Of a DNA stretch of 50,335 nucleotides, positions 8,766 to 14,746 are shown piece by piece (the stretch's first letter is position 1; each line of letters starts with the position of its first letter). The stretch is from Dehalococcoidia bacterium (lineage in GTDB: Bacteria > Chloroflexota > Dehalococcoidia > UBA2979). The stretch is from assembly GCA_009692765.1 (NCBI GenBank), contig SHYQ01000003.1:1-50335 (forward strand), in the 5' to 3' direction. Under the pieces are notes generated by a model, which saw only the letters and a list, made by a program, of their open reading frames with translations, was not told where the DNA came from and ran no database searches. A program made the position numbers and the translations under genes.

Positions 8766-9148
8766 TCAGCGCGCCGACTTCCGCCAGCCAGCTGCGATCG
8801 CCTCGCGTTCAGTGCAGAACCAGCGCTCACCGAAGGACTCGTTGATGACGGTCGCGTCATAGAAGGCCCCGCCCGGTACATGATAGATGTGCTCGGCGGC
8901 CCCGACGCTGATGTTCCCCTTGATCACGGGCTGGCCCGTCTGTGAGAAGTCGCAGGCGATCTGAGAGGGGGTACCTGCGGGGGCGTGCGTGATGGCGTAG
9001 GGAGTGCGGGCGTTGCGGTAGCGGGGCGCGGCGTCACGCTCGGCCGGGCTTCCGTCGGTGTGGCAGACGTGCCGGGGGCCCGGATAGCCGACGTGCAACC
9101 GCTCCCGAGCAACGCCACGCAGCCAACGAGGAAGGCGATCCAGCTCAT
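8766..9148 (-). pseudogene. Frameshifted putative lipoprotein: signal + Pro/Thr linker + 'sunset'/ExoI-thermonuclease C-terminal-like domain
   Basis: Frame A MSWIAFLVGCVALLGSGC + PT-rich linker; frame B CDF...IKGNIS...IYHVPG...GERWFCTEREAIAAGWRKS. Adding one base in a 5-G run (8967-8971 or 8979-8983) joins them into 127 aa. Confidence 0.7.
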
Positions 9149-9158
9149 GCCGATGAGT

Positions 9159-11687
9159 TTACCCCCGCAACTCCGCGCCGAACTCCCGTTCGAGGCGCTT
9201 CAGGAGCCGCGCCTGCTCCTTGTTCGCGTCCTCCGAGGTGAGCGTGCGATTGGGGGTCTGGTAGCGGATCGAGAAGGCGACCGACTTCTTGCCCGCAGCC
9301 AGCCGCCCGCCACGGAAGACATCGAAGACGCGCGCCGAGGCGACCAGCGGTGAGCCCTCGATGATGGCGACGACCGCGCCTGCCGCCACGCTCTCGTCGA
9401 GCACCAGCGCCAGGTCCTGCTCCACGGCGGGGAAGCGCGACACGGTACGCACGGCGGCGCGTTCCGGCGCAGCCTCGATCAGCCGCGCGACGTCGATGTC
9501 GAACAGCACGACCGGGCGCTCGATGTCGAACGCGGCGAGCGTGTCCGGGTGCACCTCGCCGACGACGCCGATCTCAGTGGCGCCGATCTTCAGGCGCGCG
9601 ACGCGATTCGGCGTGAAGCCGAACTCTGTGCCCGCTTCGTAGGTGACGGACAGACGCAGTGCGGCGAACGCGGCGTCGAGGATGCCCTTCGCGTCGAAGA
9701 AGTCGAGCGCGCGGTCGGTCGGGCGGTTCCAGCGGTCGATCTCGACGCCAGCGACGGCGCCGGTGACGTGCTCGCGCTCCTCGGGCAGCGTGCCGTCATG
9801 CGTGGGGAGGAAGATGCGCGCGGCCTCGAAGATCGCGACGGCGTCCGCCTCGGCGCGGAGGCTGCGCTCCACCGTCTCGAGGATCGCGTGGCGCAGCGTG
9901 GGGCGCATCACCTCGCGGTCGGCGGAGAGCGTGTTGCGCAGGCGCAGCGGGCGGATCGCGGCGAGCGCATCCGGCGCGATTACGCGCGCCAGCACATCGT
10001 TGGTGGTGAGCGAGTAGGTGATGATCTCCTGCATCCCCGCCCCGGCCAGCGCGTCGCGCAGGCGCTCGCGGAGGTCGAGCAGCGGGCTCGGCTCCCACTC
10101 GGGGATCGCGCCCTCGATGGCGGCGGGCGGCAGGCGGTCGTAGCCCGCGAGGCGCACCACCTCCTCCGCGAGGTCGTCCGGAATGGCGATATCCGTGCGC
10201 CACCACGGCGCGCGCACGCGGAACGCGCCGTCCGCGCGCCCGCCGTCGCTTTCGAGGAACGTGAAGCCGAGCGTGCGGAGGATCGCGGCGACCTCCGCGG
10301 TTGGAACGTGAACGCCGATCAGCGTGTCCAGGCGCGCGCGCGTCAGCGTGACCTCGGCGGGCGCGAGGGGCGCGGGGTAGGCGTCCACGTTTCCCTGCCG
10401 CGCGGTGCCGCCGCAAAGTTCGACGAACAACTTCGTGGCGCGGCGCGAGGCGTGCGCGGCGAGTTCCGGCGACAGCCCGCGCTCGAAGCGCGACGAAGCC
10501 TCGGATCGCAGCGCGAGGCGGAACGAGGTGCGGCGGATGCTCACCGGGTCGAAGCGCGCCGCCTCGAGGAGCACGCGCGTGGTGCCCTCGGTGACTTCGG
10601 TGGACGCGCCGCCCATCACCCCGGCGAGCGCGATCGGGCCGCTGTCGTCGGTGATCAGCAGCGTGTCCGGCGTCAGCGCGCGGTCGACGCCATCGAGGGT
10701 GCGCAGCGCCTCGCCGGGGCGCGCGAGGCGGACGCCAACGGCGCCCTGCACGCGGTCGGCGTCGAAGGCGTGCAGCGGCTGGCCGAGTTCGAGCATGACG
10801 TAGTTGGTGATGTCGACAACGTTGTTGATCGGGCGCATCCCCGCCGCGCGCAGCCGCTCCTGCATCCACTCCGGCGAGGGGCCGACGCGCACGCCCTCGA
10901 TCAGCGTCGCGATGTAGCGGGCGCAGAGCGTGGGGTTTTCGATGCGCACGTCGAGCGCGCCCGCGATCGCCGGGCCCGCCTCGACGTAGGTCTCGTCGGG
11001 CTCGCGCAGCATGGGCATGCCGAAGAGGCCCGTGGCGGCGGCGACATGCCCGATGATCGCGCTCGCGATGTCGCCCGGGATGCCGAGGCCCGCGGCCACC
11101 TCCTGCGACCGCGCGCCGCCGAGGATCGCGGCGATCTCGCGGGCGATGCCGACGAGGTTCATCGTGTCGGCGCGGTTCGGCCAGACGTGGACGTCGAGGA
11201 TCGTGTCGCCGAGCACGTCGGCGACCGGCGTGCCGATGGGCGTGCCCTCGGGGAGCACGATGATGCCCGCGTGCTCCTGCGAGAGGCCAAGCTCCATCTC
11301 CGAGAGCACCATGCCCGCCGAGACGACGCCGCGGATCGTGCCGCGCTTGAGGCGCGACGGCTTGCCGGTGTGGCCATCGATGAGGTCCGCGCCCTCGCGG
11401 GCGAAGGCGATGCGCTGGCCCTGCGCGACGTTCGGCGCGCCGCAGACGACGCGCATCGGCGCCTCGCCGCCGTAGTCGACGGTGACGAGGCGCAGGCGGT
11501 CGGCGTCGGGGTGCGGCTCGACCGCCAGCACGTGGCCAACGCGCACCAGGTCGCGGTCCCACGCGCCGACGCGGTGGATGCCCTCCACCTCCGCGCTCGC
11601 CATCGTCAGGCGGTGCGCGAGGTCGTCGACATCGAGGTCGGCCGGGAGGTCGACGTAGTCGCGGAGCCAGTTGAGGGAGACGAGCAT
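9159..11687 (-). CDS. pheT: Phenylalanine--tRNA ligase beta subunit
   Basis: MLVSLNWLRDYV start, VVCGAPN, PNRAD, NNVVDITNYVMLELGQPLHAFD, SRFERG, SRFPAVEQDLA; track ORF over-extends upstream. Confidence 0.96.
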   Translation of the reverse strand: MLVSLNWLRDYVDLPADLDVDDLAHRLTMASAEVEGIHRVGAWDRDLVRVGHVLAVEPHPDADRLRLVTVDYGGEAPMRVVCGAPNVAQGQRIAFAREGADLIDGHTGKPSRLKRGTIRGVVSAGMVLSEMELGLSQEHAGIIVLPEGTPIGTPVADVLGDTILDVHVWPNRADTMNLVGIAREIAAILGGARSQEVAAGLGIPGDIASAIIGHVAAATGLFGMPMLREPDETYVEAGPAIAGALDVRIENPTLCARYIATLIEGVRVGPSPEWMQERLRAAGMRPINNVVDITNYVMLELGQPLHAFDADRVQGAVGVRLARPGEALRTLDGVDRALTPDTLLITDDSGPIALAGVMGGASTEVTEGTTRVLLEAARFDPVSIRRTSFRLALRSEASSRFERGLSPELAAHASRRATKLFVELCGGTARQGNVDAYPAPLAPAEVTLTRARLDTLIGVHVPTAEVAAILRTLGFTFLESDGGRADGAFRVRAPWWRTDIAIPDDLAEEVVRLAGYDRLPPAAIEGAIPEWEPSPLLDLRERLRDALAGAGMQEIITYSLTTNDVLARVIAPDALAAIRPLRLRNTLSADREVMRPTLRHAILETVERSLRAEADAVAIFEAARIFLPTHDGTLPEEREHVTGAVAGVEIDRWNRPTDRALDFFDAKGILDAAFAALRLSVTYEAGTEFGFTPNRVARLKIGATEIGVVGEVHPDTLAAFDIERPVVLFDIDVARLIEAAPERAAVRTVSRFPAVEQDLALVLDESVAAGAVVAIIEGSPLVASARVFDVFRGGRLAAGKKSVAFSIRYQTPNRTLTSEDANKEQARLLKRLEREFGAELRG

Positions 11688-11690
11688 GCG

Positions 11691-11788
11691 GGAACCCTCC
11701 CCCCTGCCCTCTCCCGCTCCGCGGGCGAGGGTTCTGAATCTGGCCCCCTCTCCCGCGAAGCGGGAGAGGGTTGGGGGGAGGGTCTTCC
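11691..11788 (+). repeat. Dispersed two-hairpin palindromic repeat, copy A (REP-like)
   Basis: Outer stem CCCTCCCCCC/GGGGGGAGGG enclosing CCCTCTCCC..GGGCGAGGG, core GGTTCTGA, and CCCTCTCCC..GGGAGAGGG. Confidence 0.85.
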
Positions 11789-11801: not shown

Positions 11802-11840
11802 GAACTGCGCCCCGCTAGAACTGCGCCCTAGAACTGGGCG
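11802..11840. repeat. Degenerate triplication of the pheS 3' end
   Basis: GAACTGCGCCCCGCTA / GAACTGCGCCCTA / GAACTGGGCG. Confidence 0.75.
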
Positions 11841-12874
11841 AGGAAGCGCGGGTCGTTGCTGTAGAAGGCGCGGATGTCGGTGATGCCGTACTTCAGCATG
11901 GCGATGCGCTCCACGCCCATCCCCGCGGCGAAGCCGGTGTAGCGCGTGGAGTCGAACCCCGCGGCGTCGAGGATCTCCGGGTGCACCATGCCCGCGCCCA
12001 TGATCTCGATCCAGCCGGAGCCGCGACAGACGGCGCACGCCGGGTCGTTGCCGGGGCAGGCGAAGCAGTCCACCGAGAGCTCCACGCCCGGCTCCACGAA
12101 CGGGAAGTAGGAGTTGCGCATCAGCACGCGCCGCTGCGGCCCGAACATCTGCCGCGCGAACTCCTGCAGCGTGCCCTTGAGGTTCGCCATCGACAGTCCC
12201 TCGTCGACGGCGAGCAGTTCGACCTGCTGCATCATCCACTCGTGCGTGGCGTCCGTGGCCTCGTAGCGGTAGCAGCGGCCCGGCACGGCGATGCGGATCG
12301 GCGGCTCGTGCGCCTCGATGTAGCGGATCTGCATCGGGCTGGTGTGCGTGCGGAGAAGCATGGCGGGATCCGAGGGCGACTCGCGCTCCAGCCAGAACGT
12401 GTCCCACATGTCGCGTGCCGGGTGGTGCTCCGGGATGCGTAGGTGGCCGAAGTTGTACTCGTCCAGCTCCACCTCGGGGCCCTCGACGGTGGCGAAGCCG
12501 AGGCGCGCGAAGATGTCGAGGATCTCGCGGCGCACCTGCGTGACCGGGTGCAGCCGCCCGCGGCGCGCCGGGCGGCCCGGCAGCGTGACGTCCAGCGCCT
12601 CCACCGAGGCGAGCGCGGCGCGGCGCAGCGCCTCGCGCCGGGCCTCCAGCGCCGCCTCCAGCGCCTGCTTCGCGATGTTCGCGGCGGCGCCCACGGCGCG
12701 GCGCTCCTCCTCCGGCAGCGCGCCGAGGCCGCGCAGCACGCCGGTGAGCGTCCCCGACCGCCCGAGGACGCCCGTGCGCCACGCCTCGAGGGCCGCCTCG
12801 TCAGCCGCCCCCGCGAGGCGCTTGCGCGCCTCCGCTTCCACCGCCGCCACCGTGCCGAGCGAGGTCGAGGTCAT
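11828..12874 (-). CDS. pheS: Phenylalanine--tRNA ligase alpha subunit
   Basis: [52 protein letters not shown]. Confidence 0.96.
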
Positions 12875-12962
12875 GCGGGGGAGTTTAGCGCGAGGGGGGC
12901 TTAGGGGGAGCCTGACGTTCCCCGTGTGCGCTGTTTCACAATGCCCTGCTAGACTGCGCGAA

Positions 12963-13154
12963 ACCACCGAGTAGTTCCGTCACCACGTACGGCGTGCCGC
13001 CCTCCTCACCAATCTCGAAGATGGTGACGACGTGCGGGTGCGTGCCCATCCGCCCCATCGCCTGCGCTTCCCGTGTGATTCGCTCACGACCCGTGGCATC
13101 GAGGCCCTCGGTCTTGATCAGCGCGAACGCCACGTCCCGATCCAGCAGCGCATC
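12963..13154 (-). pseudogene. Remnant of a Hanks-type Ser/Thr protein kinase (subdomains II-V)
   Basis: DALLDRDVAFALIKTEGLD...[40 protein letters not shown]; no Gly loop, no HRD/DFG. Confidence 0.75.
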
Positions 13155-13208
13155 CCCCGAAAGAAGCGCAACGCTGAGTGCGGCGGCCGCTTCCGCCTGA
13201 CTCGCCCC

Positions 13209-14093
13209 CTACCCCTCCGCCCCCAACCACCTCGACGCGGCGTCGATGAAGAGACGGGCGTCCGAGGTGGTCCACTGGGACGGCGTGGGGCCGAAGAGCG
13301 ACTCGATCATGTGCTGCTGCTCGAAGGCCGGGAGGTAGGCGCCCTCCAGGTAGCGCACCACCTGCTGCATGCGCGGGCCGGGTGCCTCGGCGGCGTAGGT
13401 GCGCGCGGGGACGTTCCACAGCAGGCACTCCAGGAAGTACGAGGGCACGCGGCCGCGCTCCAGCGCCAGCACGTCCTGCAGGTAGTCGCGCATCTGCCGC
13501 GCCGTGCGCACCGTCGCGCGGTAGCGCCCCTCCGTCTCGCGGTCCTTCAGCGCGCCGTTGTCGCGATGCAGCCGCGGGTAGTGCACCACCTGCTCGAAGC
13601 CGCGCGTGAAGTACGTGATCCCCGCCGTCCACCCGCCCAGCCCGCTGTAGTGGCGGTACGGCAGCGCCGCGATCACCTCGGCGGGGGGGCCGGGCGCGGT
13701 CACGGAGAGCGAGGTGTGCATCACCCGCAGCGCGTGCCGGCCATCGCGCACCGCGCCGGGGAACGCCGCCTGCAGCGCCGCCTGCACCTCGCCGCGAAAC
13801 TGCCAGTAGTCCCACGACCCCGCCGTGCCGTCGCCCTCGATGCTCTGGCGCGTGAGGTCGCTGACGTGCGGCGTGTACCCGGTCAGGTAGGCTGTGCCGC
13901 TCTCGATCACCACGTCCACCGGCTCGTCGGCGCGGATCAGCGTGTCCGAGGCGTGCGCGCCCTGCAGGTAGACGCGCACGTTGCGCGCCGCCAGCGCCGG
14001 GGAGGCGAGCAGCGCGTCCCGCACCACCTCGAAGGTGCGCTGGCCCGGCGCGTGGTCGGCGGGCGGCTCCCACGCGACGAGCAGGCTATCCAT
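13209..14093 (-). CDS. CD-NTase (cGAS/DncV-like, CdnE-type) homolog with degenerate catalytic motif
   Basis: YLQGAHASDTLIRADEPVDVVI aligns to family (F/Y)LQGSY.N.TN(I/V)..(D/E)SDVD; also QFRGEVQAAL, AEVIA, HYPRLHRDNG..K, PSYFLECLLWNVP, LFG..P.QW. Start trimmed to ATG 14093 (294 aa). Confidence 0.8.
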   Translation of the reverse strand: MDSLLVAWEPPADHAPGQRTFEVVRDALLASPALAARNVRVYLQGAHASDTLIRADEPVDVVIESGTAYLTGYTPHVSDLTRQSIEGDGTAGSWDYWQFRGEVQAALQAAFPGAVRDGRHALRVMHTSLSVTAPGPPAEVIAALPYRHYSGLGGWTAGITYFTRGFEQVVHYPRLHRDNGALKDRETEGRYRATVRTARQMRDYLQDVLALERGRVPSYFLECLLWNVPARTYAAEAPGPRMQQVVRYLEGAYLPAFEQQHMIESLFGPTPSQWTTSDARLFIDAASRWLGAEG

Positions 14094-14172: not shown

Positions 14173-14265
14173 CGCGCCCTCACCCTCCCCTCTCCCCGCA
14201 CGGGGCGAGGGTTCTGATCCCCCTCCCTCTCCCACTGCGTGGGAGAGGGAGGGGGTGAGGGCGCG
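14173..14265 (+). repeat. Dispersed two-hairpin palindromic repeat, copy B
   Basis: CGCGCCCTCACCC...GGGTGAGGGCGCG outer stem, same GAGGGTTCTGA core; imperfect inverted repeat extends to about 14143-14295. Confidence 0.85.
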
Positions 14266-14370
14266 TCACGGGGATCGCGGGACGATCGTCCCGCGCCCCG
14301 CTCGCCCCGCAACGAGAACAGCGCGCTACGATCTGGGCACACCGCGCGCAGCGTTGAGGGGAGGCCAGCG

Positions 14371-14619
14371 ATGATTCGGAGCTACGTACTGATCGAGACC
14401 GAGGTGGGCACCACCCACTCCGTGGGCGACACGATCCGCCACATCCGCTCCGCGCACGGCCGCATCACCTCGGTGGACACCGTCACCGGCCCGTACGACG
14501 TGATCGTGCAGGTGGAGGCGGAGGACCTGGACCACCTCGGCAAGACGATCACCAGCGAGGTGGCCACGGTGCCCGGCGTCCAGCGCACCACGACGTGCCT
14601 CTCGGTGAACCTCGCGTAA
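14371..14619 (+). CDS. Stand-alone Lrp/AsnC ligand-binding (RAM) domain protein
   Basis: YVLIETEVG...VTGPYDVIVQVEAEDLDHL...VPGVQRTTT, 82 aa, no HTH; GGAGG upstream of ATG 14371. Confidence 0.85.
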   Translation: MIRSYVLIETEVGTTHSVGDTIRHIRSAHGRITSVDTVTGPYDVIVQVEAEDLDHLGKTITSEVATVPGVQRTTTCLSVNLA

Positions 14620-14655
14620 GCGGTACGGGGGGCGGGGAGCGACCCTCCGCTCGGA

Positions 14656-14746
14656 GCCCTTCACCCTGCCCTCTCCCGCTTCGCAGGCGAGGGTTCTGAG
14701 TCCGGCCCCCTCTCCTGCGGAGCGGGAGAGGGCGGGGGTGAGGGCG
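14656..14746 (+). repeat. Dispersed two-hairpin palindromic repeat, copy C
   Basis: Closely similar to copy A: CACCCTGCCCTCTCCCGCT..GGCGAGGGTTCTGAGTCCGGCCCCCTCTCC..GGGAGAGGG..GGGTGAGGGC. Confidence 0.85.

Follow-up and report, generated by a model that had tools for sequence, protein, structure and literature searches.

We analyzed a 50,335-nucleotide stretch of a Dehalococcoidia bacterium genome (Chloroflexota, UBA2979; GenBank assembly GCA_009692765.1, contig SHYQ01000003.1, positions 1 to 50,335; hereafter the window) and found that the gene at 13209–14093 on the minus strand codes for a homologue of CdnE, the clade-E cGAS/DncV-like nucleotidyltransferase (CD-NTase) of type I CBASS (antiphage systems that signal through cyclic oligonucleotides). 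Residues that hold metal and donor phosphate in the canonical enzymes are replaced in this protein, no effector gene lies beside it, and the gene is kept under purifying selection. CD-NTases are understood as signal-making enzymes, and active-site residues define the family. We consider that the cyclase homologue is probably a selectively retained, effector-less pseudo-cyclase, i.e. a domesticated and catalytically disabled type I CBASS CdnE that acts by binding. A first-pass annotation of the window had pointed to an orphan CD-NTase with a lost active site at this locus, and its statements are taken up below where the evidence bears on them.

The gene and its most remodeled part, as seen in the alignment, are:

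13209–14093 (stop codon included), minus strand: cyclase homologue, a 294-residue protein with a predicted CdnE fold and a degenerate active site (G45-A46, D56-E57-P58-V59-D60, E139, H171)
13917–13961, minus strand: codons 45–59 of the cyclase homologue, covering what was the hG[GS] motif and the loop that runs to the DxD strand; Ala46, Leu52, Glu57 and Pro58 lie here

Family membership and predicted fold

The PADLOC Cyclase profile PDLC00788 matched residues 5–288 of the protein (E = 2.1e-51), which is far beyond chance and bears out the CD-NTase likeness along the whole length that had been claimed for it. Four further PADLOC cyclase profiles matched with E-values down to 3e-18. The closest solved relative was CdnE of Rhodothermus marinus (RmCdnE, 6e0k; E = 4e-30), followed by EfCdnE, ClCdnE, LpCdnE and EmCdnE. 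The PDLC00788 score was 173 bits, compared with 273 bits for a canonical relative (G012), and the NCBIfam equivalog NF053871 (DS2_2 anti-phage nucleotidyltransferase) gave 133.8 bits against a cut-off of 350 bits, which makes the protein a homologue rather than a member of that group. Our local copy of Pfam assigned no family even at E ≤ 10, and a precomputed match to PF26305 (CD_NTase_C) is on record.

An AlphaFold2 model built from a 14-sequence alignment had a predicted local distance difference test score (pLDDT) of 83.5 and a predicted template modeling score (pTM) of 0.78, with low-confidence stretches at residues 46–56 and 129–132. A Foldseek search with this model, a check suggested at first pass, retrieved the CdnE structures 6e0k, 6e0l, 7x4a, 7x4c, 7x4f and 6e0m with E-values from 3e-23 to 4e-16 and TM-scores of 0.76–0.84 (0.80–0.82 for RmCdnE, 6E0K/6E0L), and CdnD, DncV, CdnG and CdnC ranked behind CdnE as remoter CD-NTases. 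By this model, the protein has the two-lobed cGAS/DncV cage fold of the clade-E type, in which a Pol-β-type nucleotidyltransferase core is joined by a helical C-terminal lobe. All motifs quoted in the first-pass annotation were located in the sequence: LQG at 43–45, QF..V..AL at 98–107, AEVI at 138–141, YP..H..N...K at 172–183, PSYFLECLLWNVP at 217–229 and FIDAA at 282–286.

The product begins MDSLLVAWEPP and runs for 294 codons without an internal stop. A longer frame of 377 residues, starting at 14342, was considered as the true start and rejected: it crosses a palindromic element, and the upstream sequences of the orthologues are unrelated. In all eight orthologues the alignable sequence starts at [M/V]DSLL, and the 294-residue product is therefore the real one. 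Its G+C content at third codon positions (GC3) is 0.98, close to that of the neighboring core genes (pheS 0.97, pheT 0.95, asnC 0.96, moeA 0.95), so that the description of an intact frame with host-like GC3 held.

Degenerate active site

Substitutions were placed by HMMER alignments to LpCdnE and RmCdnE, which were gap-free across the N-lobe motifs, and residue conservation was derived from an alignment of the eight orthologues with 156 canonical relatives of 270–330 residues. In LpCdnE, the ligands of Mg-A and Mg-B are Asp65, Asp67 and Asp139; those of the donor γ-phosphate are Ser53, Asn59, Lys201 and Ser220; Tyr221 stacks on the donor base; and the acceptor base is held by Gln51 and by Asn173 in lid 1 (PMC10442399). 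The equivalent residues of the window protein are:

Q44 (LpCdnE Gln51): canonical Q 96%; orthologues H 6/8, Q 2/8
A46 (LpCdnE Ser53): canonical S 100%; orthologues A 7/8, S 1/8
L52 (LpCdnE Asn59): canonical N 92%; orthologues L or V 8/8
P58 (LpCdnE Asp65): canonical D 100%; orthologues P 8/8
D60 (LpCdnE Asp67): canonical D 100%; orthologues D 8/8
E139 (LpCdnE Asp139): canonical D 100%; orthologues E 4/8, Q 4/8
H171 (LpCdnE Asn173): canonical N 96%; orthologues Q 7/8, H 1/8
R199 (LpCdnE Lys201): canonical K 100%; K in seven orthologues, R in the window protein
S218 (LpCdnE Ser220): canonical S 97%; orthologues S 8/8
Y219 (LpCdnE Tyr221): canonical Y 93%; orthologues Y 8/8

The hG[GS] motif is broken, with G45-A46 where the Ser that binds the donor γ-phosphate is expected, and so is the carboxylate pair [DE]h[DE]h, in which the first residue is Pro58 and the second, D60, is kept. 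At the third carboxylate, Glu139 of the window protein would be chemically possible, and four of the eight orthologues have Gln. The changes of GS to GA, of the first Asp to Pro58, of the third Asp to Glu139 and of Asn to H171 had been named at first pass and were placed at these positions by the alignment to RmCdnE, LpCdnE and the 156 relatives. The further claim that NTN became DTL was right as to the loss of Asn52 (to Leu) and needs a small correction as to the triplet, the change being strictly from N49/[D,S]50/T51/N52 to S49/D50/T51/L52. Other family-conserved residues (K183, R196, E222, N227 and W274) are retained. The losses thus cluster in the metal, γ-phosphate and lid part of the N-lobe; the C-lobe half of the nucleotide pocket survives. 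Among the 188 family sequences gathered, Pro at the first carboxylate was found only in the clade of the cyclase homologue, and about ten scattered other sequences (~5%) carry unrelated degeneracies.

The same residues could also be those of a rewired enzyme, in which Glu/Asp57 or Asp56 took over the role of the carboxylate at position 58, with Glu/Gln139 as a weaker metal-A ligand; such a protein would still transfer nucleotides, perhaps with a new substrate or product, and its receptor would be encoded elsewhere in the genome. Position 57 is indeed Glu or Asp in all eight orthologues and Ser in 90% of canonical relatives, D56 and D60 are invariant, and contacts to the donor triphosphate and base are among the retained residues K183, R196, K199 (Arg in the window protein), S218 and Y219. 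Purifying selection as strong as that on core genes, described below, would fit an enzyme too, and catalytic residues can migrate in pseudoenzymes, as reviews of such proteins point out (PMC10211241). However, four independent ligand positions (Ser46, Asn52, Asp58 and Asn171) were lost together, residue 57 alternates with 58 on the strand and would face away from the metal site in the canonical fold, and close orthologues differ between Glu and Gln at the third carboxylate, which is unexpected for a metal ligand. Besides, there was no SAVED, 2TM/Cap15 or SMODS match in the eight genus genomes. Two points speak against a shifted metal site, the alternation of Glu and Gln at 139 and the joint loss of Ser46, Asn52 and Asn171, and we regard a rewired enzyme as unlikely.

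Conservation under purifying selection

The eight full-length orthologues, all from metagenome-assembled genomes or metagenome contigs, are the window copy, those on contigs L001–L004, and those of G001, G003 and G005, which are species-representative genomes from this genus. Their reading frames are all intact, and the proteins are 60–96% identical. In a search of 5.8 billion proteins, five close clusters were found at 64–87% identity, with all else at or below 33%; an exhaustive search of representatives gave 1031 matches in all, the next relative being P0042 at 36% identity. Of the 294 positions, 149 do not vary across the eight copies, 58 of them being specific to the clade.

The ratio of nonsynonymous to synonymous substitution rates (dN/dS) was 0.20–0.42 among the seven closer orthologues (codon-bootstrap upper bounds 0.45–0.62) and 0.55–0.71 for pairs with the most divergent copy, L003 (upper bound 0.93); the 97.5% limits were thus below 1 in every tested pair (0.45–0.93), and the values, obtained by the NG86 method only and at extreme GC3, where it likely understates dS, are conservative. 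Calibration against flanking genes was made for one genome pair, the window and G001:

Cyclase homologue: 85% amino-acid identity, dN/dS 0.32
moeA: 84% amino-acid identity, dN/dS 0.33
pheT: 82% amino-acid identity, dN/dS 0.27
asnC: 84% amino-acid identity, dN/dS 0.26
pheS: 92% amino-acid identity, dN/dS 0.19

The cyclase homologue has diverged in step with its core neighbors and under similar constraint. It had been proposed at first pass that the gene is retained rather than decaying, and that this could be checked by asking if GA/EPVD is conserved with dN/dS below 1. The orthologues share GA and D[ED]PVD, no copy combines an intact site with random decay, and the eight intact frames with dN/dS well below 1 and equal to that of flanking core genes agree with retention.

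A 138-residue metagenomic protein, P0051, was considered as a distant member (57% identity) and rejected as such. It is nearly identical to an L002/G005-type protein (P0004) for about 74 residues and has no similarity beyond them, and its sequence suggests a frameshifted allele or an assembly error.

These data bear on the possibility that the gene is a functionless relic of a dismantled CBASS operon in which decay is still to come. The effector has been lost, about half of the genus lacks the gene, one metagenomic copy (P0051) may be frameshifted, and single degenerate homologues are scattered among about 5% of the family sequences gathered, all of which a relic would explain. On the other hand, eight independent intact copies span a divergence equal to that seen in core genes, every tested pair has a dN/dS significantly below 1 and the values match core genes, the replaced residues are themselves conserved (Pro58 in all eight copies, besides the 58 clade-specific invariant positions), and GC3 is fully host-like. 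Recent transfers of one sequence would revive the idea of a relic, but divergence in step with the flanking genes argues against them. We therefore consider a functionless relic very improbable.

Ancestry and loss of the effector

The cyclase-homologue clade was monophyletic (support 1.0) in a maximum-likelihood tree of 164 sequences. No internal branch of this tree is longer than the stem of the clade, at 1.05 substitutions per site (median 0.11, 95th percentile 0.33), and branches inside the clade do not exceed 0.37 substitutions per site. Rapid change that gives way to stasis usually marks a changed function and, as far as the tree can tell, would suggest neofunctionalization.

The sister sequence, P0042, has a canonical active site and is followed 4 nt downstream by a 192-residue Cap15 gene (PF18153) in two independent contigs. 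Similarly, G012 and G095, from another genus of the same bacterial family, have canonical homologues (35–36% identity) with a 2TM effector gene directly downstream. Since the sister and these two relatives are all CdnE-2TM/Cap15 pairs, the ancestor was almost certainly a two-gene type I CBASS.

A CBASS operon joins the cyclase to a Cap effector gene, such as one for 2TM/Cap15, patatin, endonuclease, TIR-SAVED or STING. Downstream of the cyclase homologue there is only a 65-residue kinase relic and then pheS, and not a CBASS operon. The 2TM profile had no match in any of the eight genus genomes, in a search validated on G012 and G095 (and without a match in the built-in control genomes); the SAVED profile likewise had none, in a search without a working positive control, and neither had the SMODS cyclase profile. 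These results accord with the absence of an adjacent Cap effector noted at first pass, there being no 2TM gene in the window or in the orthologous loci, and they answer its suggestion to search the genome for Cap effectors or an active CD-NTase. Two further candidates were rejected. A remnant of the ancestral 2TM/Cap15 gene was sought by tblastn with the G012 effector; the window, the orthologous loci and the whole assembly of the window gave no match. A paralogous active cyclase or a receptor encoded in trans was not seen either: a protein search of its own genome returned only the cyclase homologue itself, and SMODS, SAVED and 2TM were absent from the eight genomes as described.

A defense hotspot between asnC and pheS

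Throughout the family the genes keep the order mobB-moeA-asnC-[slot]-pheS-pheT. Another genus (G009) shares it, and its slot is filled by an MFS-type membrane protein whose GC3 is that of the host. Comparison of gene neighborhoods, also suggested by the first-pass annotation, revealed a slot with conserved borders in which the other residents change from genome to genome. Loci L012, L013, L014, L024, L025 and L026 are those of genomes G001, G003, G005, G004, G002 and G006, respectively. The slot contents are:

Window: cyclase homologue and kinase relic
G001 and L004: cyclase homologue and convergent CAP12/Pycsar-type TIR protein
G005: cyclase homologue and STAND-like AAA ATPase
G003: cyclase homologue and 653-residue protein
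L001: cyclase homologue and 305-residue protein with weak TPR matches
L002: cyclase homologue, C-terminal scrap of the 653-residue gene and IS3-type transposase
G002: no cyclase homologue; GmrSD_N (DUF262) and RiboL-PSP HEPN
G006: no cyclase homologue; Schlafen/AlbA_2 protein
G004: no cyclase homologue; unannotated low-GC open reading frames

The variable slot genes have GC3 of 0.65–0.81, compared with about 0.95 for the host. The cyclase homologue is an old, ameliorated resident of an active defense island. It is also accessory, being present in four of eight genus representatives and in no other genus among the 21 of the family. Neither the 653-residue protein (L013, 3701–5662) nor a 287-residue protein of G004 (L024, 7439–8302) had a Pfam or PADLOC match, and both may be undescribed defense genes. 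A functional link of the cyclase homologue to the divergent AsnC RAM-domain gene was examined and dismissed: asnC lies beside moeA without the cyclase homologue in G002, G004 and G009, and L003 has the cyclase homologue without asnC.

The TIR proteins occupy the same position in two loci from closely related genomes, both on the minus strand and of the CAP12/Pycsar type:

L012 (G001), 9084–10223, minus strand: TIR protein
L004, 1438–2622, minus strand: TIR protein

They are 34% identical over their full length, compared with about 89% for the flanking genes and 89% for the cyclase homologues, and from these sequences the pair looks like an allelic replacement of a defense cassette. The N-terminal domain (~220 residues) had no family or PDB match. 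The G001 protein belongs to a family of ~370-residue proteins with at least 1494 matches at 50–62% identity; in three unrelated long contigs, members stood alone with no CD-NTase nearby, among housekeeping or other defense genes, and PADLOC matched the G001 protein to the single-gene candidate PDC-S35. A functional pairing with the TIR protein was accordingly rejected as the main reading, in view of its large solitary family, convergent orientation, foreign GC3 and absence from the window and the other orthologous loci. We treat it as a co-resident of the hotspot and probably not an effector for the cyclase homologue.

More generally, one may ask if the slot is a modular two-gene defense system, with the cyclase homologue as the constant half and the downstream gene (TIR, STAND ATPase, kinase, TPR or 653-residue protein) as an exchangeable effector; the window copy would then be crippled, its kinase being a relic. 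Each orthologous locus with enough flanking sequence has a different foreign gene 3–480 bp from the stop codon, and the low identity of the two TIR proteins beside well-conserved cyclase homologues would also fit. However, orientation is inconsistent, the TIR and 653-residue genes being convergent and the others co-directional; the neighbors have foreign GC3 whereas the cyclase homologue is fully ameliorated; the TIR family stands alone in the three unrelated genomes examined and matches a single-gene candidate; and genus genomes without the cyclase homologue hold other defense genes (GmrSD_N with HEPN, Schlafen/AlbA_2), which makes the slot itself the hotspot. We find a modular system of this kind quite unlikely.

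Immediate surroundings of the gene

The other features near the cyclase homologue are:

11828–12871, minus strand: pheS, the conserved far border of the variable defense slot
12936–13133, minus strand: Ser/Thr protein-kinase relic, a foreign gene with subdomains II–V only (GC3 0.77), which occupies the variable slot
14173–14265, no strand: repetitive extragenic palindromic (REP)-like two-hairpin element within the 277-bp spacer upstream of the cyclase homologue; sister copies at 11691–11784 and 14653–14746
14371–14619, plus strand: divergent stand-alone 82-residue AsnC/Lrp RAM-domain gene, a member of the conserved mobB-moeA-asnC core synteny

The kinase remnant, palindromic repeats and AsnC RAM-domain gene named at first pass were all located as described. 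The 65-residue kinase relic (Pfam Pkinase, E = 0.003; PADLOC PD-T4-6, E = 1e-8) shares its reading frame with the cyclase homologue and directly follows its TAG stop (12936–13208); the kinase-like sequence (…LSGDALLDRDVAFALIK…) begins at most 25 codons past the stop. Because its best PADLOC matches are PD-T4-6-type defense kinases, the relic is probably a defense kinase gene truncated here at both ends. No related kinase was found in the window assembly besides the relic.

The REP-like element is ~92 nt long and is present in three copies, each with two GC-rich hairpins (CCCTCTCCCGC...GCGGGAGAGGG), which sit in the pheT-pheS (11691–11784), cyclase-asnC (14173–14265) and asnC-moeA (14653–14746) spacers. 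Two of the three copies are 87% identical, and translation of the elements yields recurrent 'LSRSAGEGxG' peptides of spurious open reading frames.

Conjugation by Cap2 in type II CBASS takes place at a Gly or Ala that ends the cyclase. Five of the eight orthologues of the cyclase homologue end in ...RWLG, with a C-terminal Gly, and the other three in ...WLGAEG, ...WLGAEGN and ...WLGAEGS (13209–13230 in the window). The likeness to the type II conjugation site may be a coincidence.

Comparison with known proteins

The cyclase homologue resembles the clade-E CD-NTases of type I CBASS (RmCdnE, 6E0K/6E0L; LpCdnE, ClCdnE and EfCdnE, 7X4x) in length, predicted two-lobed cage fold (TM-scores 0.80–0.84) and full-length profile match, and shares their C-lobe motifs YP..H..NG..K, VR..K, PSYFLECLL.NVP and LFG...W. 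Unlike them, it lacks the Ser of hG[GS], the first catalytic Asp, a fixed third carboxylate, the γ-phosphate Asn and the lid-1 Asn. It also differs from type I CBASS in having no adjacent effector, and from CBASS cassettes in its vertical inheritance, host codon usage and very long stem branch. Because three defining active-site features are broken or altered and the CBASS operon is missing, the protein would, judging from its residues, properly be classed as CD-NTase-like with predicted inactivity rather than as a cyclase.

In animals, Mab21-family and cGAS-like inactive proteins have kept the superfamily fold and lost the catalytic acids; these eukaryotic proteins act in development or regulation and owe their conservation to roles other than catalysis. 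The cyclase homologue has no close evolutionary link to them, and they lack its defense-island context. The CdnD D62N/D64N mutant (6P8J), one of the catalytically dead point mutants that serve as controls, has lost the same DxD carboxylate, but it is a single-site change made in the laboratory in a clade-D protein, whereas the cyclase homologue was remodeled naturally, at many sites, and is conserved. The second-best match in our representative library, P0043 (L034, 1913–3757; GCA_028717525.1), is a 614-residue fusion with an unannotated 360-residue N-terminal region and a degenerate C-terminal CD-NTase domain (DGNVD, Asn at the third acidic site), and it adjoins a large TPR protein. In P0043, too, a CBASS-type nucleotidyltransferase domain without its carboxylates persists, although the cyclase homologue is a stand-alone protein with Asp replaced by Pro. 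Since substitutions, architecture and lineage all differ, P0043 is an independent event, and loss of catalysis may recur in the CD-NTase superfamily. No description of a bacterial pseudo-CD-NTase clade was found in limited word-matching searches of the open-access literature.

A model for the proposed pseudo-cyclase

According to the model that we prefer, an ancestor of this Chloroflexota genus would have held a type I CBASS, made up of CdnE and a Cap15-type 2TM effector, in the asnC-pheS hotspot. The effector was then lost, and a burst of change in the cyclase removed the first metal Asp, the γ-phosphate Ser and Asn, the strict third carboxylate and the lid Asn, after which the protein was kept steady by purifying selection. 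The cage fold and the donor-holding C-lobe residues K199 (Arg in the window protein), S218 and Y219, together with K183 and R196, have been kept. Synthesis of cyclic oligonucleotides was presumably lost. As the cage fold and the C-lobe residues for the donor nucleotide are retained, the protein most likely acts without turnover, by binding. The putative ligand would be a nucleotide held by the C-lobe, a nucleic acid, or the phage-derived trigger (nucleic acid or protein) of the CdnE ancestor. Binding of a phage RNA by a staphylococcal CdnE has been reported in a preprint. The sensor, decoy and scaffold named at first pass are candidate roles.

Mutation of the equivalent Asp is the standard way to inactivate CD-NTases. 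The title of PDB entry 6P8J describes Pseudomonas aeruginosa CdnD D62N/D64N crystallized with ATP. Because the cyclase homologue has lost the catalytic Asp and this mutant still crystallizes with ATP, a binding role is, by analogy, probable for our protein.

Several observations weigh against the model of a retained, binding pseudo-cyclase. The loss of catalysis is predicted from sequence only. The acidic residue that precedes Pro58 in all eight orthologues, where canonical enzymes have Ser, and the invariant Asp56 and Asp60 mean that, in principle, a metal site could form again around a displaced carboxylate. The geometry of the loop at 46–56 is modeled with low confidence. The gene is dispensable: in three of the seven assessable genus genomes, the slot is taken by other cassettes. 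Evolution is faster in the L003 lineage, with dN/dS of about 0.6, and P0051 leaves the family after residue 74. Lastly, the window assembly is 1.26 Mb and ~76% complete, which makes the absence of a trans partner there weak evidence.

A more specific proposal is that of a stand-alone, non-enzymatic phage sensor or sequestering protein, in which the infection-sensing surface of the ancestral CdnE was kept, for a phage RNA or a virion-assembly cue. It would titrate the trigger or an anti-CBASS factor, or pass activation by contact to the adjacent TIR protein, STAND ATPase or kinase. The proposal is rather improbable in this specific form; if true, it would mean that CBASS-type sensing had been uncoupled from nucleotide signaling.

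The practical weight of these findings is limited, as they concern one genus of uncultured Chloroflexota and a dispensable gene with a putative function. Nevertheless, a soluble protein of 294 residues with eight natural variants offers a tractable test of roles of the CD-NTase scaffold besides catalysis, and a test case for which part of CBASS sensing is separable from signaling. With the cage fold and nucleotide-holding lobe kept, the metal site and effector lost, and selection as strict as that on core genes, it would be a natural case of a defense enzyme put to non-catalytic use, a parallel to the inactive Mab21 and cGAS-like proteins found in animals.

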